Shown: positions 8,422 to 27,263 of the stretch, piece after piece
Layout: every line of letters starts with the position of its first letter
How positions within the stretch are numbered: position 1 is the stretch's first letter
Assembly: GCA_964351525.1 (NCBI GenBank)
Contig: CAYGOD010000001.1
Coordinates: 78,534 to 142,533 of the forward strand
Length of the DNA stretch: 64,000 bases
Source of the DNA: an uncultured Bdellovibrionales bacterium
GTDB taxonomy: Bacteria > Pseudomonadota > Alphaproteobacteria > Micavibrionales > GCA-2720935
Direction: 5' to 3'
The notes under the pieces: generated by a model
What the model saw: only the letters and a program-made list of their open reading frames with translations
What the model was told of the DNA's origin: nothing
The model's database searches: none
Translations under genes and position numbers: made by a program

Positions 8422-8444
8422 AAAAAGCCCGCTAAAACGGGGCT
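8422..8444 (-). terminator. Weak intrinsic terminator for the 8559-9518 gene
   Basis: On the minus strand, AGCCCC-g-TTTTAG-c-GGGCT is followed by TTTTT. The stem is only 5-6 bp. Confidence 0.35.
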
Positions 8445-8558
8445 TTCGGGGGGGGATTCGAACCTCGAATATTAGGCTAATCGTCGATAGTTGCCCTTTT
8501 CTGAGAGAATAGGCTTTTTCTCTCTGTTTGCGCATTTCGGCAGTGTCATTGAATAGCT

Positions 8559-9518: not shown

Positions 9519-9571
9519 TATTTAAGGTTCTTTTAAAATTCATATAATATTTAAGAGTAACCTGCCTCGTA

Positions 9572-11170: not shown

Positions 11171-11180
11171 AACACCATAC

Positions 11181-11207
11181 ACGCTTCCTTTAGCGCGGAA
11201 GTCCAGT
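11181..11207 (-). promoter_or_regulatory. 27-nt conserved leader box, copy A (ACGCTT-N12-AAGTCCAGT on + strand)
   Basis: The same flanks, 27-nt length and 10-nt distance to the ATG occur at 12340-12366 and 26734-26760. Confidence 0.5.
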
Positions 11208-11220
11208 TATATTAACGAGC

Positions 11221-12329: not shown

Positions 12330-12339
12330 GAAGACAGTA

Positions 12340-12366
12340 ACGCTTCCTTAGAGCACGAAGTCCAGT
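12340..12366 (-). promoter_or_regulatory. 27-nt conserved leader box, copy B
   Basis: Sequence ACGCTT-CCTTAGAGCACG-AAGTCCAGT, lying 10 nt from the DUF2924 ATG. Confidence 0.5.
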
Positions 12367-12396
12367 CAATTAGTCACCTAAATTAAATGATTAAGA

Positions 12397-13200
12397 TTAG
12401 TTAATTTTCACTGCAAACGGTGCAAAGACCTGCTTTCCATCAATTTGAACCTGGGCGAATAGCTTTAAATACCCCGCTTGTTCCGGTTCAATATGAAAAC
12501 GCAAGGTTGGGCCACCACGTTCGGTGTCTTCAGTTGGTTCTGCGCCCATAGGGTGAATATGCGCGATAGTTTCATAATCTTCATAAAAGCCAACCATGTG
12601 CGCAAAAGCCCCCATGACAGGCTCAAGGACGTTTACGGCTTGCCCATCTTTGGAAATACTCACAGTGCTCATAACAGATTCTCCAGCCTTTAAGTCACCC
12701 TCCAATTCAAGCTTAAAGTCATACCCTTGTGATGAAGACTCGAAGCTCACTGTTTTATCAATTGGCTCTCTGCATTCTGCCGCGCCTTTTAAATCAACAG
12801 GTACATATTGTTGGTCTGATCCTTTAAGTTGAACATCCACCCAAATACGATAAGAGCAAGTAGTTTGTGGTGTAAAATTAAAAGCATATTGCCCAGTTGA
12901 TGTTTGAGTTGGATGTTCATGGTGATAATCATTCAATTCAGGGTCAATGATTAATAGGTGAACGGGTTTTGTATGAACAACCTTAAACTGCGACACATCC
13001 ACTGGCTGTGCTTGTTTATCTTGAACAAACAAAACAAGCGCATTTTCCTCTCCAGCTTTCAATTCAGCTGGCGTGATAGGCGTGATAATAAGTTGAGCCT
13101 CTGAATGGTTATGTCCGTCATGATCGTGTCCAGGTCCTGCCCATGTGGGCTGAATAAACGCGACTAGTATAAAAATTGTAGTGAAAATATGCTTTAACAT
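12397..13200 (-). CDS. Secreted His-rich putative metal-binding protein
   Basis: Signal peptide followed by AGPGHDHDGHNH. Internal HHEHP and AHIHPMG motifs. It is the last gene of the czc-type operon and overlaps the czcD-like gene by 7 nt. Confidence 0.5.
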   Translation of the reverse strand: MLKHIFTTIFILVAFIQPTWAGPGHDHDGHNHSEAQLIITPITPAELKAGEENALVLFVQDKQAQPVDVSQFKVVHTKPVHLLIIDPELNDYHHEHPTQTSTGQYAFNFTPQTTCSYRIWVDVQLKGSDQQYVPVDLKGAAECREPIDKTVSFESSSQGYDFKLELEGDLKAGESVMSTVSISKDGQAVNVLEPVMGAFAHMVGFYEDYETIAHIHPMGAEPTEDTERGGPTLRFHIEPEQAGYLKLFAQVQIDGKQVFAPFAVKIN

Positions 13201-14114
13201 TGTTGAGTTTCCTTCCTTTGGTTATTCATTTCAAAACATTTTTGATGTTCAAATTCCAATGTTGAGTGGTCGATGGAAAAACGATCTTTGAGTATTTGTT
13301 TCAGCTCTCGCTTGACCTCATCCATTCGGCCTTGATCGTCTATCACGACATGCGCTTCTAGAGCGTTGCGATTTTCATCCAGTTGCCAGATATGAACATG
13401 GTGCACATTCTGAACGCCTGCTTGTGTTTCCATGCTTGAAATTACATCTTCAATCGCTATGCCTTTCGGCGTTCCTTCCATAAGCAAGTGAATGACTTTC
13501 GGAATCTCGTGCAGTCCGTGATATAAAACATATCCGGCAATCAACAACGTCATTGCAGCATCCGTCCAAACCCAACCATAAAGTAAAATCAGTGTTCCGG
13601 CGATAATTACGCCAACCGAGGCAAGCGCATCCGTCAAGTTATGCAGAAATGCCGCCCGCATATTCATGCTATTTTTGGATTGACTATAGGTCAAAAAGGC
13701 CGTGAACAAATCAACTACTAAAGCTATTCCAGCAACAATAACAATCGTCCATCCGGCAATGGGTTCTGGTGTAATAAAACGCATAATTGCTTCATAGCAA
13801 AGATAGAGTCCGATAATGATCAAAGTGATCAGGTTAATAAAGGCCGCTATAGTTTCGGCGCGTTTATAACCAAATGTTTTGAATTGATCCGGCGGTTTGC
13901 GGCCAATACGAATTGCAATCAAAGCAATAAGCAGAGAAGCCGCATCGCTAAAATTATGTAGGGCATCGGCAATCAACGATAAACTGCCAGAAATTATGCC
14001 GCCGATCACTTGCGCCAGTGTGAGCAGTATGTTCGCACCCACCGCCCACCATAGGCATTTTTCGCCTATTTCAGATGGATCTCCATGGTGATGATGGTGC
14101 TGTCCGTGTCCCAT
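13194..14114 (-). CDS. czcD: Cation diffusion facilitator (CDF) metal efflux transporter
   Basis: N-terminal His tract (GHGQHHHHHG) and six TM helices. CDF signature around LIADALHNFSDA and HNLTDALASVG. A C-terminal cytoplasmic domain is present. Confidence 0.85.
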   Translation of the reverse strand: MGHGQHHHHHGDPSEIGEKCLWWAVGANILLTLAQVIGGIISGSLSLIADALHNFSDAASLLIALIAIRIGRKPPDQFKTFGYKRAETIAAFINLITLIIIGLYLCYEAIMRFITPEPIAGWTIVIVAGIALVVDLFTAFLTYSQSKNSMNMRAAFLHNLTDALASVGVIIAGTLILLYGWVWTDAAMTLLIAGYVLYHGLHEIPKVIHLLMEGTPKGIAIEDVISSMETQAGVQNVHHVHIWQLDENRNALEAHVVIDDQGRMDEVKRELKQILKDRFSIDHSTLEFEHQKCFEMNNQRKETQQC

Positions 14115-14117
14115 AAT

Positions 14118-14846
14118 TTACCCTATGTATTGTGATAGTATCCAGAAAGACATTGCTATCATCATTAAATTTTCAGTTAAGGATACAAAACCAAGTGGCA
14201 CGTTGCTATTCCCACCAACACATGCACATTTTAGTTCGCGTTTATCAACATAAACCGCTTTAAAAACAGAAATTGCGCCGACCGTTCCGATAAACAGGGC
14301 TGCGGGTGCGGAAATGATAGTGAGAAATCCCGAAATCATCGCCACGCCCGCGAGTGTTTCAATGAAGGGATAAACGTAGCCATACTTGACCCACCTTTGA
14401 GCCAGAAGATCGTAATTCAAAAATTGTAAGCTAAACGCTTCTAAGTCTCTTAACTTTTGGATACCCAATACGCACATGCTAATAGCAATAAAAAGCTCAA
14501 TCATTCTAATGATATTCAGCTCACCAATGGCCCATGCCGTTGAGAGGGCCATAAGGAAAGTCGTGGCGAAAATTGCGATAATGGGTTTGTAGGTCGTGCC
14601 TTCCTGTTTTTTTCCGAAAAATTCTTTCAGATCATCATATCCACCGATACGTTCTCCATCAATGAAAGTTTGCGGCGTTGTCTTTACATCATGCTTTTGT
14701 TTAAACACATCTGTTTCTTCGCGGCTGGTCAGATGATTATCTTCAACCTCGTATCCTTGAGCTTTTAAAAGATCGAGTGATTTTAAACCATACGGGCATA
14801 TATGCTTATCCATGACCATGCGGTAGAGTTCGGCTTTTTTTGTCAT
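14118..14846 (-). CDS. Glutaredoxin-like domain fused to MauE/DoxX-type membrane domain
   Basis: The N-terminus (CPYGLK…TPQTFIDGERIGGYDDL) is glutaredoxin-like. The C-terminus has four or more TM helices and a CAC motif. The ATG at 14846 has a good SD (AAGGAGAT); the track extension to 14924 would overlap czcA. Confidence 0.6.
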   Translation of the reverse strand: MTKKAELYRMVMDKHICPYGLKSLDLLKAQGYEVEDNHLTSREETDVFKQKHDVKTTPQTFIDGERIGGYDDLKEFFGKKQEGTTYKPIIAIFATTFLMALSTAWAIGELNIIRMIELFIAISMCVLGIQKLRDLEAFSLQFLNYDLLAQRWVKYGYVYPFIETLAGVAMISGFLTIISAPAALFIGTVGAISVFKAVYVDKRELKCACVGGNSNVPLGFVSLTENLMMIAMSFWILSQYIG

Positions 14847-14865
14847 TTTAAAAAATCTCCTTTTT

Positions 14866-17800
14866 TTATAAAACGCGCTGCTTTGTTTGCTGTTCCAAAT
14901 AACTTTGTGAAGCCTTCTCGCCAAATCTCCAGAACACCAATGGTGTAACGATGAGGTTTAGAAGCGTAGAACTGAATAGACCTGAGAAGATCACGATCGC
15001 AACAGGGCTAAGAATTTCTTTTCCTGTTTCACCAGCAGCCATTACGAGTGGTGTAAGGGCAAGCAGTGCCGTTAATGCAGTCATAAGCACTGGCACAAGC
15101 CGTTCTTGTGTTCCACGTTTGAGCATTTTAAGATCAAAGCTCTCACCCTCATGTTTCATGAGGTGGAGATAATGCGAGATCATCATAATGCCGTTGCGTG
15201 ATGCAATCCCTGTGAGCGTTATAAATCCAACCATTGTAGCGATTGAAAACACGCCGCCTGTCAGATAGATACCAATCACAGCACCAATGAAGGATAGCGG
15301 AATAGCAAGCATAACTTGTAGGCTAAGGTTGATTGAACGGAAATGTGTATAGAGAGCAAGGAACATTCCCAAAAGCGAGAAAATACTCAAGATTAAGATG
15401 TTACGTTGTGCTGTTGCTTGGCTTTCAAATTGCCCGCCATAGCTAATGTAATATCCCGATGGCAGTTCCAGCTTTTCATCGAGTATCCTTTGAATATCTT
15501 CAACGACACTTACCACATCACGACCTTGCGTATTGGCTTGTACAACCATACGGCGGCTAACACCTTCGCGGTTAATCAAGTTTGGCCCTTTGGCTTCCTC
15601 AATGTCTGCAAAAAGTTGTAAGGGAACAACATTACCGCGCAGCGTTTCAAACGGGATTTTGCCAATAGCTTCTTTATCCTCCCGAGCCTCATCATTAAGG
15701 CGCAAAACAACATCAAACAAACGATTGCCATCAATGATATTGGTGACGGTTTGTCCCTGCATCGCAAGCTCCGCATGTTGCGCGGCCTCACCAATCATAA
15801 CGCCATGTTGCTTGGCTTTATCACGGTCAAAATTCACATGAATTTGCGGTATTAGAAGCTGTTGCTCCATTTGCAAGTCAGCAATACCTTCAACGCCCTG
15901 AACCAAGGTCTGTACTTCGGCGGCCTTAGTACGCAATATATTGAGATCATCACCAAAGATTTTAATGGCAATTTGTGCGCGAACACCTGAGGTAATAAAA
16001 TCAATACGGTGAGATATAGGTTGACCAATATTGATAATCACGCCGGGAATTGAGCCGAGCTTTTCACGAATATCCGAAACGATATCTTCTTTATGTCGAT
16101 CCGATGATTTTAATGTTACTTCTAACTCTGTCGAGTTTACACCAAGCGCATGCTCATCTTCTTCGGCGCGACCCGTTCTTCGTCCAGTATCCGCAACTTC
16201 GGGAATTTCATGCATAAGGTTTTCTGCCAAAATACCGAGGCGATTACTTTCCTCCAACGATGTACCCGGCGGCGATGTTACATTGATTGTAAAACTACCC
16301 TCATTAAATTCAGGCAAGAATTCGCGCCCAAATGTTGGCACAAGCATTAACGCGCCTAAAAACAAAGCCGTTACAATTGCTAAAACAGACTTAGGGCGAG
16401 GCAATGCAAAATTTAAAACCCAAGCATGTCCAGATTTTAACTTTCGGACCATCCATCCATCTTTCTCGTCCTCCATACGCTTCATTTTGGGCAGAAGATA
16501 CGAGCATAAAGCGGGCGTTACAGTAAGTGATACAAGCATTGAGGCCACAATTGCGGTGATGTAAGCCACCCCAAGAGGGATAAACACTTTTCCTTCAAGA
16601 CCGCTCATCGCAAAAAGTGGTAAGAATACCATGAACACAATTATAGTTGAAAAGACAATCGAGTTCCTGATCTCCTTCGATGCTTTGAAAACAACACTTA
16701 AAGCGGGCTCTTTGTCTTTTTTATGCCTGTTTTCTCGCAATCGCCTGAATACATTTTCAACATCAACAATTGCATCATCGACGAGTTCACCAATTGCCAC
16801 AGCAAGACCGCCAAGCGTCATGGTGTTGATACTCATCCCGAACCATTTGAAGATGATCAAGGTCACAACAATAGATAAAGGAATAGCAACAAGCGTAATT
16901 GCGGTTGTCCTGAAATTTAGCAAAAACAAAAACAATATAATCGCTACCAAAATAGATCCATCACGCAGAGCTTCGATGATGTTGTGGATAGCGTTTTTAA
17001 TGAAGTCCGCCTGTTTAAATATCTCAGGATTGAGGACTACATCTTCAGGTAGTGAATTCTTGATAGATATTAGTTCTTTTTCAATTCGGTCAGTTAAGCC
17101 AATCGTATCTGTACCCGGTTGTTTTGAGACGGCAAGTAACACACCGGGCTTACCATTAACAGACGCGTCACCACGTTTAGCGATTGGTCCAGCTAATTTC
17201 ACCTCGGCTACGTCTGCAAGAGTTAGGGCAGGCATATCAGGTGAAACCTCTTTCGCAATGACGGTTTTTTTTAAATCATCAAGAGATCGAATAAGCCCTA
17301 AATTACGAACGGAATGTTCTTTATAGGCATCCAGTAAAAAACCACCTGTGGTGTTTACATTTGCATTTTCCAATGCCTCACGCACCTGATGTAAAGTAAT
17401 GCCGTGATTAAGCATTTTTTCGGGATCAACTAGCACGTGATATTGTTTTAAATCACCACCAATCGCCGTAATTTTTGATACACCACTAATGCCTAAGAGC
17501 CTTTGTTTTACATCCCAATCAGCAATCGTTCGTAAATCGAGAGGTGGTATATCAGGGTTTTCAGATGTGATGCCAATAAACATCACTTCTCCCATAATTG
17601 ATGATACTGGCCCCATGATGGACTGAACATCTTCGGGAAGGCTCCCTGCGACTTGGTTCAATTTTTCGGCAACAATTTGTCGAGCGAGATAAATATCCAT
17701 ATCCCAGTCAAATTCAACATAGACAATCGAAAACCCAATCGATGATGACGAACGAACCGTTGTTACACCACTCGCACCATTCATGGCAGCCTCTACAGGA

Positions 17801-18000
17801 AAAGTTACAAGCGTTTCGACTTCTTCGGGGGCAAGCCCATGCGCTTCACTAATAATTGTAACTGTGGGGCGGTTTAAATCAGGAAACACGTCCACTGGAA
17901 GTGTGCGCACAACTTGAAAGCCGTAGACCGTCATGAGTGCGGCGATAGTTATCACCAAAAGGCGATAATTCAGGGCAAAACGTATAATTGTATCAAACAT
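14866..18000 (-). CDS. czcA: Heavy-metal efflux RND pump, CzcA/CusA family
   Basis: A 1044-aa protein with 12-TM RND architecture. Typical HME-RND blocks are present (AIGELVDDAIVDVEN, GVSRRMVVQAN…). Confidence 0.9.
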   Translation of the reverse strand: MFDTIIRFALNYRLLVITIAALMTVYGFQVVRTLPVDVFPDLNRPTVTIISEAHGLAPEEVETLVTFPVEAAMNGASGVTTVRSSSSIGFSIVYVEFDWDMDIYLARQIVAEKLNQVAGSLPEDVQSIMGPVSSIMGEVMFIGITSENPDIPPLDLRTIADWDVKQRLLGISGVSKITAIGGDLKQYHVLVDPEKMLNHGITLHQVREALENANVNTTGGFLLDAYKEHSVRNLGLIRSLDDLKKTVIAKEVSPDMPALTLADVAEVKLAGPIAKRGDASVNGKPGVLLAVSKQPGTDTIGLTDRIEKELISIKNSLPEDVVLNPEIFKQADFIKNAIHNIIEALRDGSILVAIILFLFLLNFRTTAITLVAIPLSIVVTLIIFKWFGMSINTMTLGGLAVAIGELVDDAIVDVENVFRRLRENRHKKDKEPALSVVFKASKEIRNSIVFSTIIVFMVFLPLFAMSGLEGKVFIPLGVAYITAIVASMLVSLTVTPALCSYLLPKMKRMEDEKDGWMVRKLKSGHAWVLNFALPRPKSVLAIVTALFLGALMLVPTFGREFLPEFNEGSFTINVTSPPGTSLEESNRLGILAENLMHEIPEVADTGRRTGRAEEDEHALGVNSTELEVTLKSSDRHKEDIVSDIREKLGSIPGVIINIGQPISHRIDFITSGVRAQIAIKIFGDDLNILRTKAAEVQTLVQGVEGIADLQMEQQLLIPQIHVNFDRDKAKQHGVMIGEAAQHAELAMQGQTVTNIIDGNRLFDVVLRLNDEAREDKEAIGKIPFETLRGNVVPLQLFADIEEAKGPNLINREGVSRRMVVQANTQGRDVVSVVEDIQRILDEKLELPSGYYISYGGQFESQATAQRNILILSIFSLLGMFLALYTHFRSINLSLQVMLAIPLSFIGAVIGIYLTGGVFSIATMVGFITLTGIASRNGIMMISHYLHLMKHEGESFDLKMLKRGTQERLVPVLMTALTALLALTPLVMAAGETGKEILSPVAIVIFSGLFSSTLLNLIVTPLVFWRFGEKASQSYLEQQTKQRVL

Positions 18001-18014
18001 ATCTAATTCCTCCC

Positions 18015-19031
18015 TTAATGCTTATGATCGCTGTTATCGTCATGGTCATGTCCATCATCATGTGCGTGACCTTCCTGCTCATCATGTGTGTCTTCTTCAT
18101 CAATGTGTTCCTGAACTCCTCCAACAGACATATATTGAAGCTGATAATTTCCATTAGTCACAACACGTTCATTTGGGAATAGACCGCTTTTAATTTCAGT
18201 GTGATGACCTGTCTTTACCCCAACTGTCACCTCGCGCTTTTCAACCCCTTGGCCTTTCATAACATATACGAAGTAAGAGCCAAGCTCACCTAAAACAGAT
18301 CGCTTTGGAACCGCCATAACTGGCGCATCCGACCCTGTGAAAATTTCCATTGTTCCTTGTAATCCGGGTTGAATATCGCGCTTTGGGGTATCAATCATGG
18401 CAAAGATTGAAAATGTACGGCTTTCAGGGTCAATAACGCGGTTAATACGCTGTATTTTACCCTCAATATGACGATCAGGTGCAATATCAAGATGCAGTTT
18501 GGCTTTCTGCCCTACCTTCAAGATTTGAATGTCTGGTGTCTCATAAGCAACACCGCGCACTAGCATTTGGGAGGCATCACCGATTTCAAGAATATCGCCA
18601 CCAGCATCAATTATATCACCTACGCCTGCGTGCAGATTAAGAACAAATCCATCAATAGGTGAGGACAAAGCAACATTGCTACTTCCAACACTAAGGGGTT
18701 CCAGCGTGGCAAGACGTTGCCCTTTTTTCACTTCTTGTCCGACCTGAACAGCAATATCAAGAATCTTACCGCCAAACCTTGGAGAGATGGATGCTTGTTT
18801 CTCAGGCAATAATTCAGTGAAGGCTAACATATCAACAGCTTGTGCAATCGATAAAAACTCAACTTTTTCCGATTGAATATCCAGATTACTCATTTGTTGA
18901 TTGGTTAAATTAAAATGGGTTGCAGGGCCTGCGCCGCCAGCAAAGGCACTTTCCCCATGGTCGTGTCCAGGACCTGCATAAGCTGGGGCAATAATTGCAA
19001 TAAAAGCTATTAATATTAAAATTTTATTCAT
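18015..19031 (-). CDS. czcB: RND periplasmic adaptor (membrane fusion protein), His-rich termini
   Basis: Signal peptide followed by AGPGHDHGES. Contains lipoyl/beta-barrel MFP blocks and a C-terminal HDEQEGHAHDDGHDHDDNSDHKH tail. Confidence 0.85.
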   Translation of the reverse strand: MNKILILIAFIAIIAPAYAGPGHDHGESAFAGGAGPATHFNLTNQQMSNLDIQSEKVEFLSIAQAVDMLAFTELLPEKQASISPRFGGKILDIAVQVGQEVKKGQRLATLEPLSVGSSNVALSSPIDGFVLNLHAGVGDIIDAGGDILEIGDASQMLVRGVAYETPDIQILKVGQKAKLHLDIAPDRHIEGKIQRINRVIDPESRTFSIFAMIDTPKRDIQPGLQGTMEIFTGSDAPVMAVPKRSVLGELGSYFVYVMKGQGVEKREVTVGVKTGHHTEIKSGLFPNERVVTNGNYQLQYMSVGGVQEHIDEEDTHDEQEGHAHDDGHDHDDNSDHKH

Positions 19032-19036
19032 GATTT

Positions 19037-20260
19037 TTATTCCTTTGTGTTTGCAAGACTTTGACCAACTAAGCTTTCAAGCTCAATTCGCGCCTCGATA
19101 GAATTTAGGTATACTTGTAAGGCTTCGCTTTGCACATCCGTAATCCTTTCACGCATTTGAAAAAGATCGAGGATTGAAGCCTGTCCATTTTCAAATTTCT
19201 TATCAGTAATGGATTGCACATCATCCCAAGATGGAACGATTTTATTGCGATATGTAGAGGCCGAGATTTGCGTGGCCTTGGCTTGATCATAAGATGCTGC
19301 CAAAACATTCACAAAGTTTTGCTCATTCAGGGCATTAAGATTACTTTGTGCCAAACGGCGTTCTGCATTAGCTCTAGAAAGTTCGGCGTTATTTCGATCC
19401 CATATCGGAATGGCTATATTTACACCGAATAAAATTGCGGTGCTGTTTTCGTCAAGATCGCGCTCTATAACTGCACGAGGCGCAAACTCTGGAAAACCTG
19501 CATCTTGCCGCGCCACATTGTAGCGTCTTTCTGCAAGGGCTTTGCGGCTTTCCAAAAGACTTCGGATTGATCCCTCATTACCCGCGAGAGATGTTAAGGC
19601 CGTTAGATCAGGAATTTCAGGGCTTTTAGGCCGCTTAACATCAAAGCTCGTTTGATCCATGCCAGCCATCCGTAAAAGATTTGTCGCACCGTTTGTCTTT
19701 CTGGAGCGAATAACACGAAGTTGCTCTTCCAAACGGAGCGCTTCGGCTTTAAAGATTTTGGCATCTGCCGCATCAACACGTCCATCCTTTGCTGCACGCT
19801 CAATCAGCTTTTGCTTCTTACGTGCATAGCTAGCGTTTTCAGATAAAAGCTTTTCTTGTTCCTGCAAAGCCCAATAAGAAGAATAGCCACGCGTAATAGA
19901 GTGAATAAGTTCCAACATCTGAGCTTTCTGCTCAATACTAGCTGTTCTGCGTAGTGCGTTGGCGTATGAACCGCGCGACCCAAAATTGGAAAGCCTCATT
20001 GGCTGCTCTATCTCAATACCTACAGAACGCGAAGTACCGTCTTCAATCGCTGTAATATTGATTTCTGCTGTAGGGTTACTAAGCGTTTCAATTTCAAACG
20101 CCTCGGCATCAGCGTCTGCAAAATCATTTAAGATACGTGCAGTTTCTGGGCTGTTTTGAAGAGCTTGTTTAATAACTGTTTCTAGTGAAAGCGTTCCTGC
20201 TTTTGCTGCTTGAGTAGGCGCAAACAAAGCAACCAGCAAAATTATATATAAATATTTCAT
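19037..20260 (-). CDS. czcC: TolC-family outer membrane factor
   Basis: Signal peptide MKYLYIILLVALFAPTQAAKA and two coiled-coil/beta repeats typical of OMF proteins. The ATG at 20260 is preferred over the track start at 20332. Confidence 0.8.
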   Translation of the reverse strand: MKYLYIILLVALFAPTQAAKAGTLSLETVIKQALQNSPETARILNDFADADAEAFEIETLSNPTAEINITAIEDGTSRSVGIEIEQPMRLSNFGSRGSYANALRRTASIEQKAQMLELIHSITRGYSSYWALQEQEKLLSENASYARKKQKLIERAAKDGRVDAADAKIFKAEALRLEEQLRVIRSRKTNGATNLLRMAGMDQTSFDVKRPKSPEIPDLTALTSLAGNEGSIRSLLESRKALAERRYNVARQDAGFPEFAPRAVIERDLDENSTAILFGVNIAIPIWDRNNAELSRANAERRLAQSNLNALNEQNFVNVLAASYDQAKATQISASTYRNKIVPSWDDVQSITDKKFENGQASILDLFQMRERITDVQSEALQVYLNSIEARIELESLVGQSLANTKE

Positions 20261-20346
20261 TGTTATTTCCGTTTTTAAATGTTCATAGAAAAACGCAGCC
20301 CTAAACAGAGCTGACGCAAAATGCAGGCACAATTAGCCTGCGAACA

Positions 20347-20691
20347 TTAAATACGGGGTGGGCGACGCAATGCCGAGTGCTTGAAAGAATTATGATTATC
20401 AGAAGAAACTAAAATAAACGGCACGTTGACATTCATAGGTGTTTTTAAAGGGGCATTAAAAGTTGTAATTGTTTGAGAATGAACACAGCAACAATCAGTA
20501 CATGAACCTTGCTCTTGATTTTCATCCTGATTGTGGCTCTGCCCTGAGTGGCAAGGTTCGCTATCTGTTTTGTTGTGTTGCTCCATTTGATAATGATCAC
20601 ATGCATGGTCAGCAACATAAGCATGTGCTAAATCGGAAAAACCTCCGACAACGAACATAAATAAAAATATGCATAAGGTGAAAACTTTCAT
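20347..20691 (-). CDS. Small secreted Cys/His-rich protein (first gene of the czc-type operon)
   Basis: Signal peptide followed by a mature part rich in His, Cys, Asp and Gln (DHACDH, CHSGQSH, SCTDCCCVH). It occupies the position of small czcI-like periplasmic proteins, but no homology was established. Confidence 0.4.
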   Translation of the reverse strand: MKVFTLCIFLFMFVVGGFSDLAHAYVADHACDHYQMEQHNKTDSEPCHSGQSHNQDENQEQGSCTDCCCVHSQTITTFNAPLKTPMNVNVPFILVSSDNHNSFKHSALRRPPRI

Positions 20692-20775
20692 GATTCGAGG
20701 ATAGGCTCTTTTTCTGCTTAATCAAGAAAATAATTTAATAAGCTAACTACGAGGAGAAATTTTACAAAGATTAGC

Positions 20776-21180
20776 TTATTTATCTTTATTTTGATCGTCT
20801 ACCCCATATATCGGAGGCATAGGCTCAACTGGCCCATAAGGCGGTCTAATGATAATAGTAGGTCTCTGCATTGATTGCTCAACGGGAGAGGCTTTTTCAA
20901 GATATTGCATTACAGTTTTTAAAGCCTGCATATTGCCTTTCAAGCTCTCGCTGTAAAGCTTGTTAATAAGGGCTTCCTTTAGTTCTATCTGTTCTTTCCT
21001 TCCACCTTTGTTAATTGTGACAAGTTGTTTGGACACTTCGAGAAAAGTATCCCAAAATTTCTTTTCTTTTTGTGCATTAGTTGGGCGCCCATTTTGATTG
21101 CCAGATTGTCCTTTTTGAAACTGCGTTGATTTTGGCGGTCTGCCGTAGCCCACTTCATAGTCATCGTTATTATCCGTCAT
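20776..21180 (-). CDS. DUF5681-like protein
   Basis: The motif GYGRPPKSTQFQKGQSGNQNGRP matches the remembered DUF5681 N-terminal signature. The ATG at 21180 overlaps the upstream gene's end by 11 nt. Confidence 0.55.
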   Translation of the reverse strand: MTDNNDDYEVGYGRPPKSTQFQKGQSGNQNGRPTNAQKEKKFWDTFLEVSKQLVTINKGGRKEQIELKEALINKLYSESLKGNMQALKTVMQYLEKASPVEQSMQRPTIIIRPPYGPVEPMPPIYGVDDQNKDK

Positions 21181-22483
21181 GGTGCTCTCCCTTCTTTTGA
21201 TCAAAGGTTTGTCCATCTTCGTGAACTGCAACTTTTAAAGTTTCTTCCTTGTAGCGTTGGATGATCACATCGACATATTTAGGATCAAGCTCGATTAATC
21301 TCGCCTTACGCCCAGCTCGTTCAGCAGCGATTAATGAGCTGCCACTGCCGCCAAATACATCGAGAACAATATCACCACGTTTAGTGCAATCGAGGATAGC
21401 ATCTTCAATCATGATAACTGGTTTCACTGTAGGATGAAGCTCAAGATCTTTGTTGTTTTGGAATGTATTCACACCTGCATAGTCCCACACATTGGTGCGA
21501 TAACGCCCATGCTTGCCAAGTTCTACATTGTTGATATGAGGTTCTGTTCCATTTTTATAAACAAACACCAATTCATGTTTAGATCGGTATAGCGAACCCA
21601 TACCGCCATTGGTTTTGTTCCATATGCATAAATTCTTGAAATCATCATAAATCTCGCCGGCCTTGGTGATTTCTTTGATGTGACGCCAATCCATACAGAT
21701 ATAATGGAGTGAACCATTAATGGAATATTCCTTGAGATTCTGAAATGCGGTTTTCAAGAACCGTGTGAATTCTTCTTCTGACATCTCACCCGATGCCATT
21801 TTGAATTCATCATGTTTGACTTTGCCATTCCCACAAATGTGACCGTTTACAGGCACATTATAGGGTGGGTCTGTAAAAATGGCTTGGGCCCGTTCAGATT
21901 CCATCAAGCGTTCGTAAGATTCTGACTTGGTGGCATCACCACAATACAAAATATGTTCTCCCAGATACCACAGATCGCCTAATTGACTCACTGGGTTATT
22001 TGGAAGATTCAGAATTGATGGTTCTTCTGGCGATGCTTGATTACCCATCATAAAACCATCAATCTCAGCAATTTCAAAGCCAGTGAGCGTTAAATCAAGG
22101 TCGAGATCAAGGTCAGCAATGGTCTGAATTTCTGACTGTAGGATTTCAAAGTCCCAGCCAGCGTTTTCAGCGAGTTTATTATCAGCGATGATATAGGCGC
22201 GCTTCTGCGCTTCGGTTAAATGCCTCAGATAGATAATAGGTACTTGATGAATTCCAACAAGCTTAGCCGCTTCAAGGCGTCCATGACCAGCAATAATAGT
22301 ATGATCTGCATCAATCAGAATGGGGTTGGTAAACCCAAACTCGTGCATACTATCGGCGATTTGCTGAATTTGCTTTTTTGAATGCGTACGTGCATTGCTT
22401 TTAAAGGGTTTAAGGTCACTAGATTTTAAATAATGGATTTGTAAGTTTTGCCCAAGATGGGCAAAAGCATCTGCTTTTTGCAT
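21170..22483 (-). CDS. ParB-like N-terminal domain fused to N6/N4 DNA methyltransferase
   Basis: ParB-N blocks (NARTHSKKQIQQIADSMHEFGFTNPILID, IIAGHGRLEAA). Methyltransferase motif IV IFTDPPYNV and AdoMet motif VLDVFGGSGSSLIAAE. Confidence 0.85.
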   Translation of the reverse strand: MQKADAFAHLGQNLQIHYLKSSDLKPFKSNARTHSKKQIQQIADSMHEFGFTNPILIDADHTIIAGHGRLEAAKLVGIHQVPIIYLRHLTEAQKRAYIIADNKLAENAGWDFEILQSEIQTIADLDLDLDLTLTGFEIAEIDGFMMGNQASPEEPSILNLPNNPVSQLGDLWYLGEHILYCGDATKSESYERLMESERAQAIFTDPPYNVPVNGHICGNGKVKHDEFKMASGEMSEEEFTRFLKTAFQNLKEYSINGSLHYICMDWRHIKEITKAGEIYDDFKNLCIWNKTNGGMGSLYRSKHELVFVYKNGTEPHINNVELGKHGRYRTNVWDYAGVNTFQNNKDLELHPTVKPVIMIEDAILDCTKRGDIVLDVFGGSGSSLIAAERAGRKARLIELDPKYVDVIIQRYKEETLKVAVHEDGQTFDQKKGEHHDG

Positions 22484-22661
22484 GATAAGTCTCCTAGGAA
22501 AAATAGTTTTCCATTTTAATGTTTAAGGGGATGACCAAGAGGTGCCTTAGGCTCTCAAGGATGGTCCCCTTGGGACTCATCAATGTCTGAAAATAAAAAC
22601 GTCGTTAACGCTTTCAAAGTATATTTTATTCTAAATAAATCCTGCAGTCAATAAATTGATC

Positions 22662-23153
22662 TTATGATTTACAAAGCTCGTTCCATATTTTTGCAAAATC
22701 ATCAACTTCATCTTCAAAAAAAGTAAGTTCTGGCGATCCGGACACAAAGTATTTATAACCAACATACCCGCCATATGCATTTTTTGAATTGACCTGACCG
22801 CAGACTACATGCGTGCCACTAGCTTTACTATAAAACACATTTTTAAACTGTGCAGATGATGCATCTTTTAATCGTGATCGCACATAATCTTTTGTATTCC
22901 AAATGAAGATATCCTGTTTGTTTTTATCAAGCAGATAATCCTGTTTCTCTTGAGTAGAGGCTGCTTTATATTCATCTTCGTGCAGTTTTGCCGAAATGCT
23001 CCCAAAGACAAGAAGTACAATAAAAACCGAGAGCAACCCTAGAGCTATTTTTGAGATAATTGAAACAGGATCACGTTTCTCTGCACAATTGATGCACGTA
23101 ATAGTACTTTTACTAACGCCTTGATTACATTTCTTACATTTGGGTAATGCCAT
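22662..23153 (-). CDS. Zinc-ribbon / single-TM protein with extracytoplasmic domain, unknown function
   Basis: MALPKCKKCNQGVSKSTITCINC (CxxC…CxxC), then a TM helix, then a domain of about 100 aa. The ATG at 23153 has a GGGAG SD 8 nt upstream. The track's longer start runs into the structured element. Confidence 0.5.
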   Translation of the reverse strand: MALPKCKKCNQGVSKSTITCINCAEKRDPVSIISKIALGLLSVFIVLLVFGSISAKLHEDEYKAASTQEKQDYLLDKNKQDIFIWNTKDYVRSRLKDASSAQFKNVFYSKASGTHVVCGQVNSKNAYGGYVGYKYFVSGSPELTFFEDEVDDFAKIWNELCKS

Positions 23154-23170
23154 CTTACAACTCCCGTTAA

Positions 23171-23380
23171 TGTTAAAAGTCACCAGGCGCTTATCGCTCT
23201 GGTGACCGGGAGTTTGTAAGTTGCAATTACACAACCGCGACGATCTTTAGACCGGGGTCTTGGACATACATCGCCGCCTCCCGATCGTAAGAGATCGAAA
23301 GGCGACATCATGACGGCGATATCAGCCGGTAATTGCAGGGTTACAAAGCCCCGGCGAATACGCAAAACCGTATTCACAGC
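23171..23380 (-). ncRNA. Candidate structured RNA or cis-regulatory leader (four-way junction + intrinsic terminator), family not recognised
   Basis: A locally GC-rich island in AT-rich DNA. A 21-bp interrupted closing helix (23329-23354 with 23206-23231) encloses three hairpins, including a 12-bp helix at 23275-23304. There is a 5' hairpin at 23356-23375. The 3' hairpin GTCACCAG/CTGGTGAC is followed by UUUU on the minus strand. Several G-U pairs exist only in the minus-sense transcript. Confidence 0.45.
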
Positions 23381-23408
23381 CATACGTTATCTCTAATAGC
23401 ATTTTGTA

Positions 23409-24158
23409 TCAAGGAGAAAGATAGTTTTGGAAAAGATCGTAAAAGCCTATAACCGCTTGGGTTAAAGCATATGATGTTGTTATTAAAACTGCTAATCCGC
23501 CAACGAAACTGATAATGTTTTTTATTTTTGGAGCCGTTCGGTCCCAAAATGCAGTTTTAGGGCTTCCCAATATTAGAAGATGCCTTTTATTTTTTGATAA
23601 CCACCAATCGTGCGCGTAATGTTCTTCGTATACTTGAAACAAGCTGCTTTTGCTTAGCACTCTCTCGTTTATCGTGAGCGTAGAATTTTTTTCGTAAGAA
23701 AACCCATTACTTTTTCCTGACCATACACCACTAATATTGGAGATGTAATATAGAGCATCTAATAAGCTTGCCCCTTCGTATTTTGACTGCGCGATAATTT
23801 CTTCAACCGTAACGCCTTCTTTAAGTTTACTTGGATACATTTCTTTCAAAATATTAAAACACTCCTCCATAACCTCAATAAGGTTTTCCGATTTTTTAGA
23901 CTTTATAAGTGGAGGGGCATACGGTGAAAATCGATAAAAATTATGAGATTTATCATGTTCAATCCATCGTTCTGTATGATCTAGTTGATCTAGAGTATCC
24001 ATTTCGTCGGCATGTTGGGCGCGATATTTACTTTTATCAACTTGCGGCGGGATTCCTTGTAATGCGCTAAAAACATTTCGAAGGCACTGAACTTTCTCAG
24101 GACCTAAAACTTTAATCGCTTTTTTAATTTGCGTCTGATAGGTTTTTCTTACACTCAA
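23409..24158 (-). CDS. Hypothetical protein with C-terminal TM anchor
   Basis: A 249-aa ORF with a C-terminal hydrophobic helix (IISFVGGLAVLITTSYALTQAVIGF). No domain recognised. Confidence 0.5.
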   Translation of the reverse strand: MSVRKTYQTQIKKAIKVLGPEKVQCLRNVFSALQGIPPQVDKSKYRAQHADEMDTLDQLDHTERWIEHDKSHNFYRFSPYAPPLIKSKKSENLIEVMEECFNILKEMYPSKLKEGVTVEEIIAQSKYEGASLLDALYYISNISGVWSGKSNGFSYEKNSTLTINERVLSKSSLFQVYEEHYAHDWWLSKNKRHLLILGSPKTAFWDRTAPKIKNIISFVGGLAVLITTSYALTQAVIGFYDLFQNYLSP

Positions 24159-24170
24159 TATTTTGTCCTA

Positions 24171-24554
24171 TTAAACCGACCAACGAGCTTCTTGTTCTTC
24201 ATCTTCATCTTCATCTTCATCTTTAGCAGCGTCCTTTCGCAATCCTAACTGCTGAATCATTGTTTGTGTCCAGAATCGAACTTGTTTGATTGGATGGTCT
24301 TCTAGATCTTTAAGTGGGAGCTCATAGAGCGCGTAATATGTTGTTCTGGATCCGCTCCATCCATAAGTTCCGATATTTCTTGCAATACCATCTAGAACAT
24401 CTTTTCTGTCACCAAAACTATCGAGCAATCTGCGCATGATAGGATGAAGTGTTCTTACAGCATCTTCAGGGTTTTGAGATGTTAAAACTGGCACAACAAC
24501 AGCAACAAAAGCTGGAGCAACATCCGGGTGACCATTTTGGTCACAAATAAACAA
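24171..24554 (-). CDS. Hypothetical protein, possibly a 5'-truncated remnant
   Basis: A 127-aa ORF with only a TTG start and no visible SD. It has an acidic DEDEDEDEEQE tail and reads like the C-terminal piece of a larger helical-repeat protein. Confidence 0.3.
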   Translation of the reverse strand: MFICDQNGHPDVAPAFVAVVVPVLTSQNPEDAVRTLHPIMRRLLDSFGDRKDVLDGIARNIGTYGWSGSRTTYYALYELPLKDLEDHPIKQVRFWTQTMIQQLGLRKDAAKDEDEDEDEEQEARWSV

Positions 24555-24680
24555 TGGGGTTTGCTTTATTTACGGCTCTGCGTAAAGTAGTTTTATGGCC
24601 GATTTCACGGTTGCACAAAAAATGATTGATAGAATCAATTATGCCTTACAGAATATATTATACATTACGTAGATATTTTC

Positions 24681-25210
24681 TTTCCCTGATATTTCCCTGT
24701 TAATTGTTGGTCATATAACGGTGCCTTTGTCGTAACTTATTGTTTTGCAATAGGTTACAAGCTCTTAAATGTCCGTACTATTAAATATTACTAAAATTTT
24801 CCCTGTAAATTCCCTGTTTAACAGGGAATTTGCTATGATCGTTTAGTGCTATTGAAAAGCACTACACCGCCATACAGTCTTGCGTTTTTCCAAAAATAGA
24901 TATTTATCGTCCATGCCCGCGCTGTTTGCGGGCTTTCTAATATACGTCTTTAAAAGCCCTCATTGAGAATTGCTGAATAAAGCCAAATTATACCCATTCT
25001 CTCTTGGCCCTATATAGGCGAGGGCTCTTGCACAGTGTTTCAGGGTTTTAACACATTCAAATGACTTCTTAATTCCCTGCTAACAGGGAATTTTACAGGG
25101 AATTTTCTATTTTTCTAAAGCAAAAAAGCACCATAATGAAGCTGTTAGCAGTGTGAGCCTGGTTTCATGATGAATGACTCATTATATAATGCCAAATTAA
25201 CAGGGAATTT
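24681..25210. repeat. Array of nine A(A/T)TTCCCTGT(T/A)A motifs in both orientations (iteron/operator-like)
   Basis: Forward copies lie near 24682, 24693, 24799, 24810 and 25073. Reverse copies lie near 24821, 25083, 25095 and 25199. There is a perfect 25-bp palindrome AAATTCCCTGTT-T-AACAGGGAATTT at 24807-24831 and a second palindrome at 25071-25092. Tandem copies are spaced 11 bp apart. Confidence 0.8.
24915..24938 (+). terminator. Intrinsic-terminator-like hairpin inside the non-coding stretch
   Basis: GCCCGC-gctgttt-GCGGGC followed by TTTCT. No ORF lies upstream of it. Confidence 0.35.
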
Positions 25211-26723
25211 AAAGACGAATTAGTGTTTCAAAACTATCAATGATTGATTGATGTATATGATTTTTACTATGTGAGCCTTGCTTTGCAATATCAACCAAGC
25301 TTTCACCGTCGAAATGACGCGCTCTCCAAGAGATGCCCTTTACTACCCGTTTTAATAAATCTGCGTTCTCGTGACTAAATAGATCAAGTTTTTCTTGGTT
25401 GTCTGGTTTCTTTAATATGATAGCGTTTCTAGATTGTGTAAAAATATAATCGTATATGATGCATTCTGTTTCTGCGTATTTATCTTCATGACTCAAAACA
25501 TCTTTCCAAGAATAAGAAACTTTAATGTGAGAATGGCTTAGTGTTACACGTTGAATGTATCTCTGAATAACATCGGTATGTGTGTGGGGTCTCATATTGT
25601 CTGATGAAGAACTAAAAGCTAGTTTATCTATTGATACTTTGCTTAATTGTTCTTTGAGTTTTTCAGTTATAAAATCTTCAATTTGTTTTGCTGTGATGCG
25701 CGCGATAAGACCTTTGGGGTGATCTTTATATTGAAGTAGGTTCTGAGATATATAATAGCGATATTGCTTGGTCTTACCGTTCTTGGTTTTTTTAACAGTA
25801 TATGTTGGGCTGTACGGTGTACCATCAGGATCAAAGAGCAAGCCTTGTAACATATATTTAGATTGTGTCGTTTGCTTTCTAGCCGTAGCGTTCTCTGTTA
25901 ATAGTGTCTGTGCTTTGTTCCATGTTTCTTCATCAATGATTGCGTTGTGCAGACCCTCATAGATTTTATCTTTATGTGTTATCTTGCCGATATAAGCTTG
26001 GTTCTTCAAAATCTTATAAAGGCTTCCTCTGCTATAATATTTGTTACCATGCGTTCGTCCTTTCTGTGATGTCCGTATGGGGCTTTTTATGTTGTCTTGT
26101 TCGAGTGATGCCTTTAGCTCTTTGACTGATCTATATTCGAGATACCGTTTAAATATAAGTTCAGCTATTGGTGCCTCATCTTTATTAATCGCTAACTGCC
26201 TATTATCGATTGAATAACCAAGTGGTGCGGATCCACCCATCCACATGCCCTTAGCTTTACTTGCAGCAATTTTATCTCTGATACGCTCGCCTGTGACTTC
26301 ACGTTCAAATTGAGCAAAGGACAGTAAGACGTTAAGCGTTAATCGTCCCATCGATGTTGTTGTGTTAAAGCTTTGTGTGACGCTGACAAAGGTAACGCCG
26401 TATTCGTCAAAGACTTCTACCAGTTTTGAAAAGTCGGCCAATGACCGTGTTAGTCTATCAATCTTATATACAACTACGATGTTAGCCTTATAGGTCTTAA
26501 TGTCTTCTATAAGCCGATCTAAGGCTGGTCGCTCTAATGATCCCCCCGAATACCCACCGTCATCATAATGGACCTTGCTGGGTGACCAGCCTTCAGATTT
26601 TTGGCTTAAGATATAAGCCTCACATGCCTCACGTTGTGCGTCCAATGTATTGAAGGTCATGTCAAGGCGTTCATCTGTCGATTTACGGGTATATATGGCA
26701 CATATTTTTTTAGCATTCGTCAT
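25209..26723 (-). CDS. Large serine recombinase (paralogue of 9572-11170)
   Basis: Contains CAIYTRKST, LDAQRE, DGGYSG, VVVYKIDRLTRSL and SFAQFERE. The N-terminal ~200 aa are clearly alignable by eye with the first recombinase; the C-terminus differs. Confidence 0.9.
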   Translation of the reverse strand: MTNAKKICAIYTRKSTDERLDMTFNTLDAQREACEAYILSQKSEGWSPSKVHYDDGGYSGGSLERPALDRLIEDIKTYKANIVVVYKIDRLTRSLADFSKLVEVFDEYGVTFVSVTQSFNTTTSMGRLTLNVLLSFAQFEREVTGERIRDKIAASKAKGMWMGGSAPLGYSIDNRQLAINKDEAPIAELIFKRYLEYRSVKELKASLEQDNIKSPIRTSQKGRTHGNKYYSRGSLYKILKNQAYIGKITHKDKIYEGLHNAIIDEETWNKAQTLLTENATARKQTTQSKYMLQGLLFDPDGTPYSPTYTVKKTKNGKTKQYRYYISQNLLQYKDHPKGLIARITAKQIEDFITEKLKEQLSKVSIDKLAFSSSSDNMRPHTHTDVIQRYIQRVTLSHSHIKVSYSWKDVLSHEDKYAETECIIYDYIFTQSRNAIILKKPDNQEKLDLFSHENADLLKRVVKGISWRARHFDGESLVDIAKQGSHSKNHIHQSIIDSFETLIRL

Positions 26724-26733
26724 GCTTACAGTA

Positions 26734-26760
26734 ACGCTTGGCGTGACCGCTAAGTCCAGT
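26734..26760 (-). promoter_or_regulatory. 27-nt conserved leader box, copy C
   Basis: Sequence ACGCTT-GGCGTGACCGCT-AAGTCCAGT, lying 10 nt from the recombinase ATG. Its central 12 nt differ from copies A and B but can still form a hairpin. Confidence 0.5.
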
Positions 26761-26867
26761 CATATAGCTATAAATCGCCACATTTTTTTTTGCATAACAA
26801 TTGACAGCCTGCTTGAAAGCTTTTAATCATGATAATATCAAACATAAAATAAAGAGGACTTAAAATC

Positions 26868-27263
26868 ATGAAACTACTACCCAAGCTTTTTCTTGCTCCT
26901 GTATTTGCATTCGCTCTTTCAGGATGTGCGGATAATGATAGTTTAAAGCATCCTGAAAAACCCCTCAGTGAACTGGAGCTTAACTATACAACAAATCATG
27001 TCGAGATAGGTGATCTAGAGGCATCCTTGAAAGAAGTTGAGAATTTATCCGCTAAATTTTGTATGATAAGTGGTTATCGCCAAGGATTTTCTTTTCAGGT
27101 TGATACCGTGGGTCAATGCAACAACATTGCTGAAGGGTTAGCGCCAAATGGAAGTATTCGAGCGCATAGCTTTAATGAAGAAGGTGAAATTCTAGTAACC
27201 TACATTAAAGACACACGATCTCGTATGGATCATAGAATCTCAATCAGAAAGTATAACAACTAA
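26868..27263 (+). CDS. Small lipoprotein, unknown function
   Basis: Signal peptide with lipobox ALSGC. Confidence 0.6.
   Translation: MKLLPKLFLAPVFAFALSGCADNDSLKHPEKPLSELELNYTTNHVEIGDLEASLKEVENLSAKFCMISGYRQGFSFQVDTVGQCNNIAEGLAPNGSIRAHSFNEEGEILVTYIKDTRSRMDHRISIRKYNN

Follow-up and report, generated by a model that had tools for sequence, protein, structure and literature searches.

Conserved repeats beside a large serine recombinase gene are likely accessory arms of an attachment site at tRNA genes

Two mirror-image repeat cassettes flank one crossover core

We analyzed a 64,000-nucleotide stretch of contig CAYGOD010000001.1 from an uncultured member of the Micavibrionales (the whole of this stretch is called the window below), with a focus on the gene-free DNA at positions 24555 to 25208 that borders rec2, a gene encoding a large serine recombinase. 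This DNA carries multiple copies of a short repeat, TTCCCTGT. Comparison with related elements makes it likely that these copies are arm-type accessory sites belonging to the attachment site of temperate-phage-like elements that encode a large serine recombinase together with a DUF2924 protein. These elements integrate at tRNA 3' ends, and their crossover core is an AGACTG...CAGTCT palindrome centered on the last tRNA bases. In the proposed mechanism, a protein encoded by the element would bind the repeats cooperatively and wrap or loop the arm DNA beside the recombinase-bound core. The resulting higher-order complex would then control the efficiency or the direction of integration and excision, as the arm sites of phage lambda or the accessory sites of res do.

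Scanning with the pattern WTTCCCTGHWA recovered nine copies of the motif in ORF (open reading frame)-free DNA between 24681 and 25208. Five are forward (24681-24691, 24692-24702, 24798-24808, 24809-24819, and 25072-25082) and four are reverse (24819-24829, 25081-25091, 25093-25103, and 25198-25208), as an earlier reading of the sequence alone (the original prediction) had placed them. Two further statements of that prediction were borne out: no ORF of at least 30 amino acids was found in 24555-25208, and the last copy, which ends at 25208, adjoins the rec2 stop codon (25209-25211). The TCCCTG core is kept in all nine copies. The 8-mer TTCCCTGT occurs eight times in the 64-kb window versus 1.13 times expected (none of 100 shuffled sequences reached eight), and seven of these eight occurrences fall within this 530-bp stretch. 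The motif had been described as absent from the rest of the window, which is nearly true: a single extra copy, ATTCCCTGTTC, lies at 58071-58081 on the reverse strand, inside a 624-amino-acid ORF (57972-59846), and is probably a chance occurrence. The geometry of the original prediction needed similar small corrections. Both of its palindromes are perfect inverted repeats, but the one at 24807-24831 consists of 11-bp arms around a 3-nucleotide spacer (AAATTCCCTGT-TTA-ACAGGGAATTT) rather than 25 uninterrupted bases, and the one at 25071-25092 has 9-bp arms around a 4-nucleotide spacer; the 11-bp tandem spacing holds except in one pair, which is spaced 12 bp. In BLAST searches, 24555-25208 gave no match among phages and one match of only 35 bp, not meaningful, among plasmids (a Bradyrhizobium plasmid). 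An Rfam search of window positions 20 to 29 kb placed no family inside the gene-free stretch.

The original prediction treated the copies as one array tied to the second recombinase. The evidence instead describes two separate arms in mirror orientation, most likely from two different elements: the nine copies are two mirror-image repeat cassettes on either side of one crossover core. This core, at 24857-24881 (forward strand), is an imperfect palindrome, AAGCACTACA / CCGCCA / TACAGTCTT, whose central CCGCCA (24867-24872) is identical to the 3' end of tRNA-Ser. It includes the conserved P half-site ACAGTCTT, which reads AAGACTnnnTGG on the other strand. The cassette on the rec2 side (A arm, 25072-25208) lies about 190 bp from the core and that on the opposite side (B arm, 24681-24829) only 42 bp from it. 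Accessory or crossover sites for the serine recombinase had been among the roles first suggested for the repeats; the comparative evidence supports the former, but the motifs are not themselves the crossover, which falls between the clusters.

Read in the direction of rec2, the A arm begins with a distal copy, ATTCCCTGTTA, at 25198-25208 (reverse strand), directly after the stop codon; equivalent copies directly follow the recombinase stop in two related loci (L001 and L005). About 105 bp further on comes a trio of copies in forward-forward-reverse order (25072-25103, reverse strand), which holds the inverted repeat with 9-bp arms. The spacer between trio and core (P arm, 24882-25071, reverse strand) contains an AGAGAGAA box (about 24998-25005) and a GC hairpin. 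The latter resembles an intrinsic terminator (GCCCGC-GCTGTTT-GCGGGC followed by TTTCT; 24915-24933, forward strand). It begins some 45 bp past the CCA end, in an orientation that would stop a tRNA transcript on its way into the element. The B arm has the same plan: a distal direct pair with 11-bp spacing (24681-24702, forward strand), a motif-free gap, and, some 96 to 117 bp from the pair, a forward-forward-reverse trio (24798-24829, forward strand) that holds the inverted repeat with 11-bp arms and ends 42 bp before the core CCA, in the sequence CCGCCA-TA-CAGTCT.

Cassette geometry is conserved in related elements

To place the window among its relatives, we scanned genomes with rec2 and obtained 80 loci (best-segment recombinase identity, 43 to 58%), which carry L numbers here, as do the viral contigs. 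In many of the 80, ATTCCCTGT directly follows the recombinase gene, and 17 of them have at least three TCCCTG copies within 700 bp past the recombinase stop. Record titles span Micavibrio, Caulobacter, Phenylobacterium, Sphingomonadales, Hyphomicrobium, and a Pseudobdellovibrionaceae metagenome-assembled genome (MAG). One locus from a gammaproteobacterial MAG (L029) carries a variant motif, CCCTGTTA, instead of TCCCTG arrays. A pattern for the trio, TTCCCTG-N4-7-CCCTG-N3-6-CAGGGAA, matched 65 viral contigs. The clade spans these contigs together with dozens of bacterial genomes and MAGs, mostly of Alphaproteobacteria.

Geometry was measured over 77 distinct, non-identical contexts drawn from genomes and viral contigs, and a single layout emerged. 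One to four direct copies lie between positions -170 and -95, counted from the trio; their spacing is about 21 bp in GC-rich elements and 11 bp in AT-rich ones. They are followed by a gap of about 85 to 95 bp (-90 to -10) essentially without copies, and then by the trio, with copies at +1, about +13 (forward), and about +23 (reverse). The consensus over the contexts is (A/T)A(A/T)TTCCCTG(T)(T)(A), in which the CCCTG core is invariant among the contexts compared. More than 1 kb from the trio, TCCCTG occurs in the relatives at a background of 0.33 per kb. Both clusters of the window fit this layout, with one distal copy in the A arm and a distal pair in the B arm, each within the conserved distal zone. 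A background-level motif frequency and a lack of conservation among related islands had been named with the original prediction as grounds for doubting it; the motif proved scarce in other places, and conservation of the region across related elements is strong.

The distance from cassette to crossover is similarly constrained. In 17 of 18 B-type contexts, the window included (42 bp), the trio ends 38 to 42 bp from the CCA. In most A-type contexts, the trio end is about 150 to 190 bp from AGACTnnnTGG (193 bp in the window), and most relatives have 149 to 182 bp between trio and AGACT. The trio points toward the core in every context. By comparison, what adjoins the interior side of the cassette varies: the recombinase 3' end, the 5' end of a gene for a ParB_N-DNA methylase fusion (ParB-MTase), or one on each side. 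In alignment A3 (the window with L001 to L006 and L081), the columns of the A-arm trio are invariant, the GC hairpin is kept at the matching place, and all class I relatives share with the window the order trio, AGAGAA box, GC hairpin, TTCTCT box, AAGACT, and TGGC.

A second class of repeats was observed in the P arm. An AGAGAA...TTCTCT(G) inverted pair brackets the terminator hairpin in the window, in L001 to L005, in L081, and in contigs of the L124 type; TTCTCTGT of this class is one base off the main motif. GC-rich relatives have AAACCGGACTGCAGAGAA...GCAGTCCGGTTT inverted repeats that resemble the core half-site, and loci of the Hyphomicrobium group that lack TTCCCTGT keep only CAGAGAC...GTCTCTG pairs.

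Cassettes point to a crossover at tRNA 3' ends

In 10 loci (L001, L003 to L006, L031, L037, L050, L068, and L081), a tRNA gene comes next after the cassette; it lies on the other strand and reads toward the cassette. These tRNAs are Ser-GGA, Ser-GCT, Gln, or Trp. The junction reads AAGAC(T/C)nnnTGGC, where TGG corresponds to the CCA end of the tRNA, and AGACTnnnTGGC adjoins the tRNA genes in L001, L003 to L006, and L081. Two class I relatives of rec2 (L006 and L081) lie at tRNA-Ser(GGA) itself, with the same AAGAC(T/C)nnnTGGC junction. Integration at a tRNA 3' end with a AAGACTnnnTGG junction was found in the relatives. GC-rich relatives display the core as a perfect palindrome, AGACTGCGTG-N6-CACGCAGTCT (for example, AGACTGCGTG-CTCCGC-CACGCAGTCT), 27 bp after the trio, and the center of this perfect palindrome is the tRNA-Ser 3' end.

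Closely related pairs of loci locate the crossover further. In L025, the order is recombinase, core, repeats, and ParB-MTase. L042 and L033, which are 89 to 91% identical to L025, match its sequence between the recombinase stop and TGGCTG but not beyond: past TGGCTG, L025 continues into the repeat arm, and L042 and L033 continue into a tRNA or tRNA remnant. L017 diverges from L023, L015, and L067 after the same TGGCTG, with a tRNA replacing the far arm. Because both comparisons diverge at this point, we place the crossover at the very 3' end of the tRNA, which leaves the repeat arm outside the minimal core. In the relatives, integration thus parts the far arm from the recombinase. The core of the window has the form of an imperfect inverted repeat, and integrated copies in the relatives have host DNA in place of the far sequence. 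A minimal site of about 50 bp free of accessory DNA is not what the 77 contexts contain, since their cassettes reach 150 to 330 bp from the core. We also considered a crossover in the T loop, with the sequence past the B trio as a mimic of the tRNA T arm; the comparisons of attP (the phage attachment site) with integrated copies and the core palindrome led us to reject it.

One locus shows the target region in multiplicate. In L003, positions 11680 to 12375 comprise three tandem copies of about 240 bp, each with a terminator hairpin, TTCTCTGTAGTG, GCAGACTAAATGGC, and the 3' half of a pseudo-tRNA; the last copy ends in a real tRNA-Gln. Such tandem copies look as if elements had integrated several times at the same tRNA.

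Weighing the accessory-arm reading against other roles

Several observations weigh against arm-type accessory sites. About 60 of the 80 loci have no TTCCCTGT repeats near the recombinase, and none lie beside the recombinases of Wolbachia phage WO or Acidithiobacillus phage AcaML1, the cultured relatives; because of these cases, the repeats are not obligatory for function of DUF2924 or the recombinase. Most elements show the cassette on one arm only, and in no contig are the two ends of a single integrated element both visible. The fixed geometry could, in part, come from a linked block being inherited together and not from selection. In the window, the left half of the core matches the right half imperfectly. 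Finally, the proposal runs against the known behavior of the enzyme class, since characterized large serine integrases use sites shorter than 50 bp. Some of the repeat-less loci may carry the cassette on a distal arm that is not seen. Such loci were also rejected as "motif-negative" controls, since the comparison of L025 with L042 and L033 places the repeats on the distal arm and since L069 and L072 carry the cassette beside ParB-MTase.

If the repeats were instead an operator array, an element-encoded regulator would bind them to control adjacent genes, and their position beside the attachment site would be a matter of linkage. Possible targets are the operon that starts with a 127-amino-acid ORF (24554 downward), the ParB-MTase/terminase module, or read-through from rec2. 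Mixed direct and inverted copies are typical of operators; the distal pair of the B arm overlaps a weak sigma-70-like match on the reverse strand (24703 to 24675) that faces the 127-amino-acid ORF; and the ParB-MTase gene of type 2 and type 3 contigs has the distal repeats 200 to 900 bp upstream of its start. However, type 1 and class I cassettes follow the recombinase stop with only a tRNA beyond, which leaves no gene to regulate. What stays constant is how far the cassette lies from the crossover core and which way it faces; its relation to promoters and genes does not. A conserved repressor-like gene next to the cassette was not found. The region has eight promoter-like matches, versus 5.0 ± 2.7 in shuffled sequences, which is no excess. 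We therefore regard an operator array as improbable, while a dual role in regulation and attachment, by analogy with the P2 Cox excisionase-repressor, is possible.

A pac site bound by DUF5681, which occupies the position of a terminase small subunit, or a parS-like site for the ParB_N-methylase is a rarer prospect still. It would account for the company that the cassette keeps: among viral contigs that are long enough to tell, most have ParB-MTase and DUF5681 along with the trio; contigs of types 2 and 3 place this module no more than about 1 kb from the cassette; and in L148 the order is ParB-MTase, DUF5681, and terminase large subunit. Yet the type 1 cassette lies 3 to 4.5 kb from the module, on the far side of the recombinase, and L082 keeps the trio although 7.9 kb of upstream sequence contains no ParB-MTase and only a remnant of DUF5681. 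Neither a pac site nor a centromere requires a geometry tied to the crossover core. The original prediction had raised a partition or centromere-like site and pointed to the ParB-N fusion; the only ParB_N domain is fused to the methylase 2.2 kb from the array, a ParA gene is absent, and a relative that lacks ParB-MTase still has the trio, so this suggestion was not upheld.

Nor did the suggestion of origin iterons fare better. Under this explanation, the repeats would serve replication of the excised circle, with initiator monomers on the direct copies and a dimer on the inverted pair. Direct spacing of about 21 or 11 bp combined with an inverted pair does resemble iteron origins, and the stretch 24555-25208 is moderately AT-rich (GC content, 36%), with an AT content along it of 50 to 74% and no distinct block. 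Against this, no Rep-type initiator was found among the neighboring ORFs (Pfam, PHROGs, and NCBIfam), 24555-25208 has no perfect DnaA box, and the cassette lies at the extreme end of integrated elements, adjoining a tRNA. An origin would need neither a fixed distance and orientation to the core nor mirror copies on both sides of it. We consider this role very improbable, and accessory arms of an attachment site remain the reading we favor.

The recombinase and candidate repeat-binding proteins

The rec2 product (504 amino acids; 25209-26723, reverse strand) has the Pfam domains Resolvase (PF00239) and Recombinase (PF07508), with sequence matches that include TP901-1, SPbeta, Bxb1, phiC31, and A118; the best structural matches are the integrases of SPbeta, Bxb1, phiC31, and A118. 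Its structural model (predicted local distance difference test score, 81.8) comprises the catalytic domain, the recombinase domain, a hairpin that resembles a zinc ribbon but lacks cysteines, a short helix in place of the coiled coil, an additional beta-rich domain after this helix, and a confidently modeled C-terminal three-helix bundle (residues 451 to 503). The cysteine-free beta hairpin at the zinc-ribbon position (residues about 290 to 330; window 25735-25855) is conserved in 52 homologs; in this clade, the DNA-binding domain known from large serine recombinases appears to exist in a form without zinc. A second large serine recombinase gene, rec1 (9572-11182, reverse strand), lies in the same window, and no tyrosine recombinase was found between 8 and 28 kb; both recombinases are of the serine type. 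The C-terminal bundle is homologous between class I recombinases (such as rec2) and class II recombinases (such as rec1). Pfam returned no family for the C-terminal 100 to 200 residues, and one motif-bearing subgroup (L050 type) lacks the second helix of the bundle.

In 77 of the 80 loci, a DUF2924 gene lies directly upstream of the recombinase gene. With this gene pair, with ParB-MTase and DUF5681 near the cassette in most viral contigs, and with a terminase large subunit after DUF5681 in L148, the carriers are temperate-phage-like elements. DUF2924 proteins have a nearly invariant C-terminal motif, ITGshWSGPlFFGLR (alignment A2), and the DUF2924 model has no significant structural neighbor. 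A host factor with one fixed 9-bp site across this range of taxa is unlikely, so a repeat binder encoded by the element is the more plausible. DUF2924 is a tentative candidate for this role, DUF5681 or another protein is an equally tentative one, and the C-terminal helix-turn-helix of the recombinase is only slightly less favored. ParB-MTase is less likely to be the binder because L082 keeps the trio without it. No third small gene conserved beside the cassette was universal; five type 1 viral contigs (L088, L090, L115, L126, and L145) have, between ParB-MTase and DUF2924, a small ORF with the motif ATGWQAHSVRGA, which looks like DUF3489.

AcaML1 (L154; JX507079) offers a natural dissection of the recombinase. 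At positions 3968 to 6197, a recombinase annotated as "large subunit" is followed by a "small subunit" (Gp2) and then by a paralogous hypothetical ORF (Gp1). Both Gp2 and Gp1 carry ...LTLLAPDIVE...GRQP, the C-terminal motif of single-chain class II recombinases. The C-terminal DNA-binding-like module is separable, then, because AcaML1 encodes it as separate ORFs.

Comparison with known site-specific recombination systems

The lambda-type attP is served by a heterobivalent tyrosine integrase and contains the arm sites P1/P2 and P'1-3 along with Xis and IHF sites. The site described here is like it in having short repeated motifs on both sides of a core, in defined orientation and over tens to about 200 bp; in lying at a tRNA 3' end, where the element supplies the replaced tRNA end and a terminator; and in arms that part to the two prophage ends on integration. 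It is unlike lambda attP in that the enzyme, a serine recombinase, is not known to have an arm-binding domain, the window lacks an IHF consensus, the binder may be a separate protein such as DUF2924, and most members show repeats on one arm only.

A second comparison is with res, the site of the Tn3/gamma-delta resolvase and of Sin. The enzymes belong to the same catalytic family, the rec2 C terminus has a helix-turn-helix-like bundle as resolvases do, and a crossover palindrome is accompanied by extra direct or inverted sites within 100 to 200 bp that would build a regulatory synapse. In res, the accessory sites (II and III) are themselves versions of the crossover half-site, and one small resolvase binds both and carries out intramolecular resolution. 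By contrast, TTCCCTGT differs from the core half-site AGACTG, with only CTG(T) in common; the enzymes here are of the integrase type, 500 to 560 amino acids long; and the reaction is integration into tRNA genes. Repeats that do resemble the core, GGACTGC and AGAGAA/TTCTCT, occur in the P arm.

Large serine integrases are valued in genome engineering for short sites and independence from cofactors, and coiled-coil contacts, together with protein recombination directionality factors, account for the direction of their reactions. The present enzymes share with those of phiC31, Bxb1, A118, and SPbeta the catalytic and recombinase domains and the closest structural similarity, and their core, an imperfect palindrome, is like canonical sites of about 26 to 50 bp. 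They differ in the cysteine-free zinc-ribbon-like hairpin, in the short helix at the place of the coiled coil, in the almost constant operon linkage to a DUF2924 gene, and in targeting tRNA 3' ends. A recombination site with accessory arms would be unexpected for the class: substrates of under 50 bp without accessory sites are reported for characterized members such as Bxb1 (PMC1470463). In the literature that we searched, accessory arms were described neither for large serine recombinases nor for serine integrases at tRNA genes, and for DUF2924 with a recombinase the search returned gene adjacency in Wolbachia only. That adjacency has been noted in phage WO (PMC10299305 and PMC11376236). As in rec1, a small ORF in the DUF2924 position precedes the recombinase gene in both WO and AcaML1, whose recombinases are 36 to 50% identical to rec1; unlike in rec1 and rec2, the C-terminal region of the AcaML1 recombinase resides in the separate "small subunit" ORFs.

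A more specific proposal, which we advance tentatively and hold to be rather less probable than its denial, is that this clade works in a heterobivalent style. The enzyme would occupy the core, DUF2924 or the enzyme's own C-terminal helix-turn-helix would occupy the TTCCCTGT arms, and a wrapped lambda- or res-like complex would set directionality, making this the first accessory-site-dependent serine integrase. If arm-type sites are indeed at work, the serine family would also have evolved accessory-site control, previously tied to tyrosine integrases and small resolvases, and DUF2924, a family without known function, would gain a testable role. Such arms would likewise explain why integration sites of alphaproteobacterial serine-recombinase prophages are hard to identify; in Paracoccus, for example, they were "not identified" for most serine-recombinase prophages (PMC6536676).

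History of the attachment site in the window

For this genome, the analysis recasts the gene-free stretch as a probable mobile-element junction at tRNA-Ser(GGA). That tRNA gene lies at 8296-8383 (forward strand), and its 3' end, CCGCCAT (8378-8384), recurs as a direct repeat at 24867-24873. A search for direct repeats of at least 12 bp of the tRNA-Ser 3' end found nothing relevant, only CCGCCAT being shared; for serine recombinases, the lack of a long direct repeat comes as no surprise. At tRNA-Ser, the half-site is degenerate. Joining 24872 to 8384 yields a circle in which ParB-MTase and DUF5681 read away from the array, followed by the array and trio, 42 bp, CCGCCA, and rec1 and DUF2924 reading toward the core, which is the type 2 order of the viral contigs. 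Removing 8384-24872 leaves rec2, the A arm, and AAGACTGTA-TGGCGG joined to tRNA-Ser, which is the arrangement of the class I relatives at tRNA-Ser(GGA), L006 and L081.

Because of these two correspondences, we favor, with some reserve, a tandem junction of two elements at tRNA-Ser(GGA). On this account, element X (rec2 and the A arm) would have integrated first and would now be a remnant without its DUF2924 gene. Element Y (8384-24872; the B arm, ParB-MTase, DUF5681, a czc-type cargo, DUF2924, and rec1) would then have inserted at the same CCGCCA, as a 16.5-kb prophage, now degraded, with the B arm as its distal end. The segment 8384-24872 is accordingly predicted to be an excisable metal-resistance element of 16.5 kb. 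The other possibility, that the window holds a single unrecombined attP of rec2, is less likely in our judgment. L002 might be another such attP: its layout is likewise A-core-B, with unrelated island genes beyond. The repeats are attachment-site arms on either reading.

The upstream side of rec2 bears on the state of element X. No DUF2924 gene lies there, unlike at rec1 and in 77 of the 80 relatives; a gap of 144 bp (26724-26867) and a divergent lipoprotein-like ORF (26868-27263) are found instead, which suggests that the rec2 element is truncated at this side. The copy of the site in the window is probably a degraded junction. It could go further and be a non-functional relic, the decayed attachment DNA of dead elements with no present role in this genome. 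Degradation of the island would agree with this: czc cargo stands in for structural genes, the AbiU2 gene is wedged in, rec2 has no DUF2924 gene, the tRNA-Ser half-site is degenerate, and the left half-site of the core is imperfect. Nevertheless, the nine copies keep both the TCCCTG core and the geometry of the family, and rec1, rec2, and DUF2924 are full-length ORFs. We judge a relic the least probable of the alternatives; it concerns activity in this genome only and does not conflict with the identity of the repeats as attachment-site arms.

Neighboring genes and minor features

The interval between the tRNA gene and the gene-free stretch begins with a 319-amino-acid ORF (8559-9518, reverse strand) and rec1. 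In the integration module of element Y, which consists of rec1 and its partner DUF2924 (11892-12329, reverse strand), the two genes are separated by AbiU2 (11221-11895, forward strand), a HEPN abortive-infection gene, whereas DUF2924 and rec1 are normally contiguous. A czc-type metal efflux cluster follows (12397-20332, reverse strand), with a CDF transporter, MauE/DoxX, an RND pump, a membrane-fusion protein, and an outer-membrane factor; it occupies the place of the terminase and structural genes in relatives. Next come DUF5681 (20776-21231), ParB-MTase (21170-22483), and four ORFs without a family (22662-24554), all on the reverse strand.

Directly after tRNA-Ser(GGA), the interval 8384-8560 contains a GC hairpin (about 8424-8444), an orphan tRNA T-arm/acceptor fragment, GGGGGGGGATTCGAACC, at 8449-8465, and a GAGAGAA...TTCTCTC inverted repeat. 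These features look like the remains of earlier integrations at this tRNA gene.

A weak Rfam match to sRNA-Xcc1 was observed at 23196-23286, within 23180-23383 (reverse strand; 32 bits, E value of 0.014). The same family matches L005 at 2327-2417 (43 bits, E value of 2.7e-4, under the gathering score of 53). A 67-amino-acid ORF that overlaps the match in the window has tblastn matches in L002 to L005. The ParB-MTase module of these elements seems to be accompanied by a conserved small RNA or ORF.

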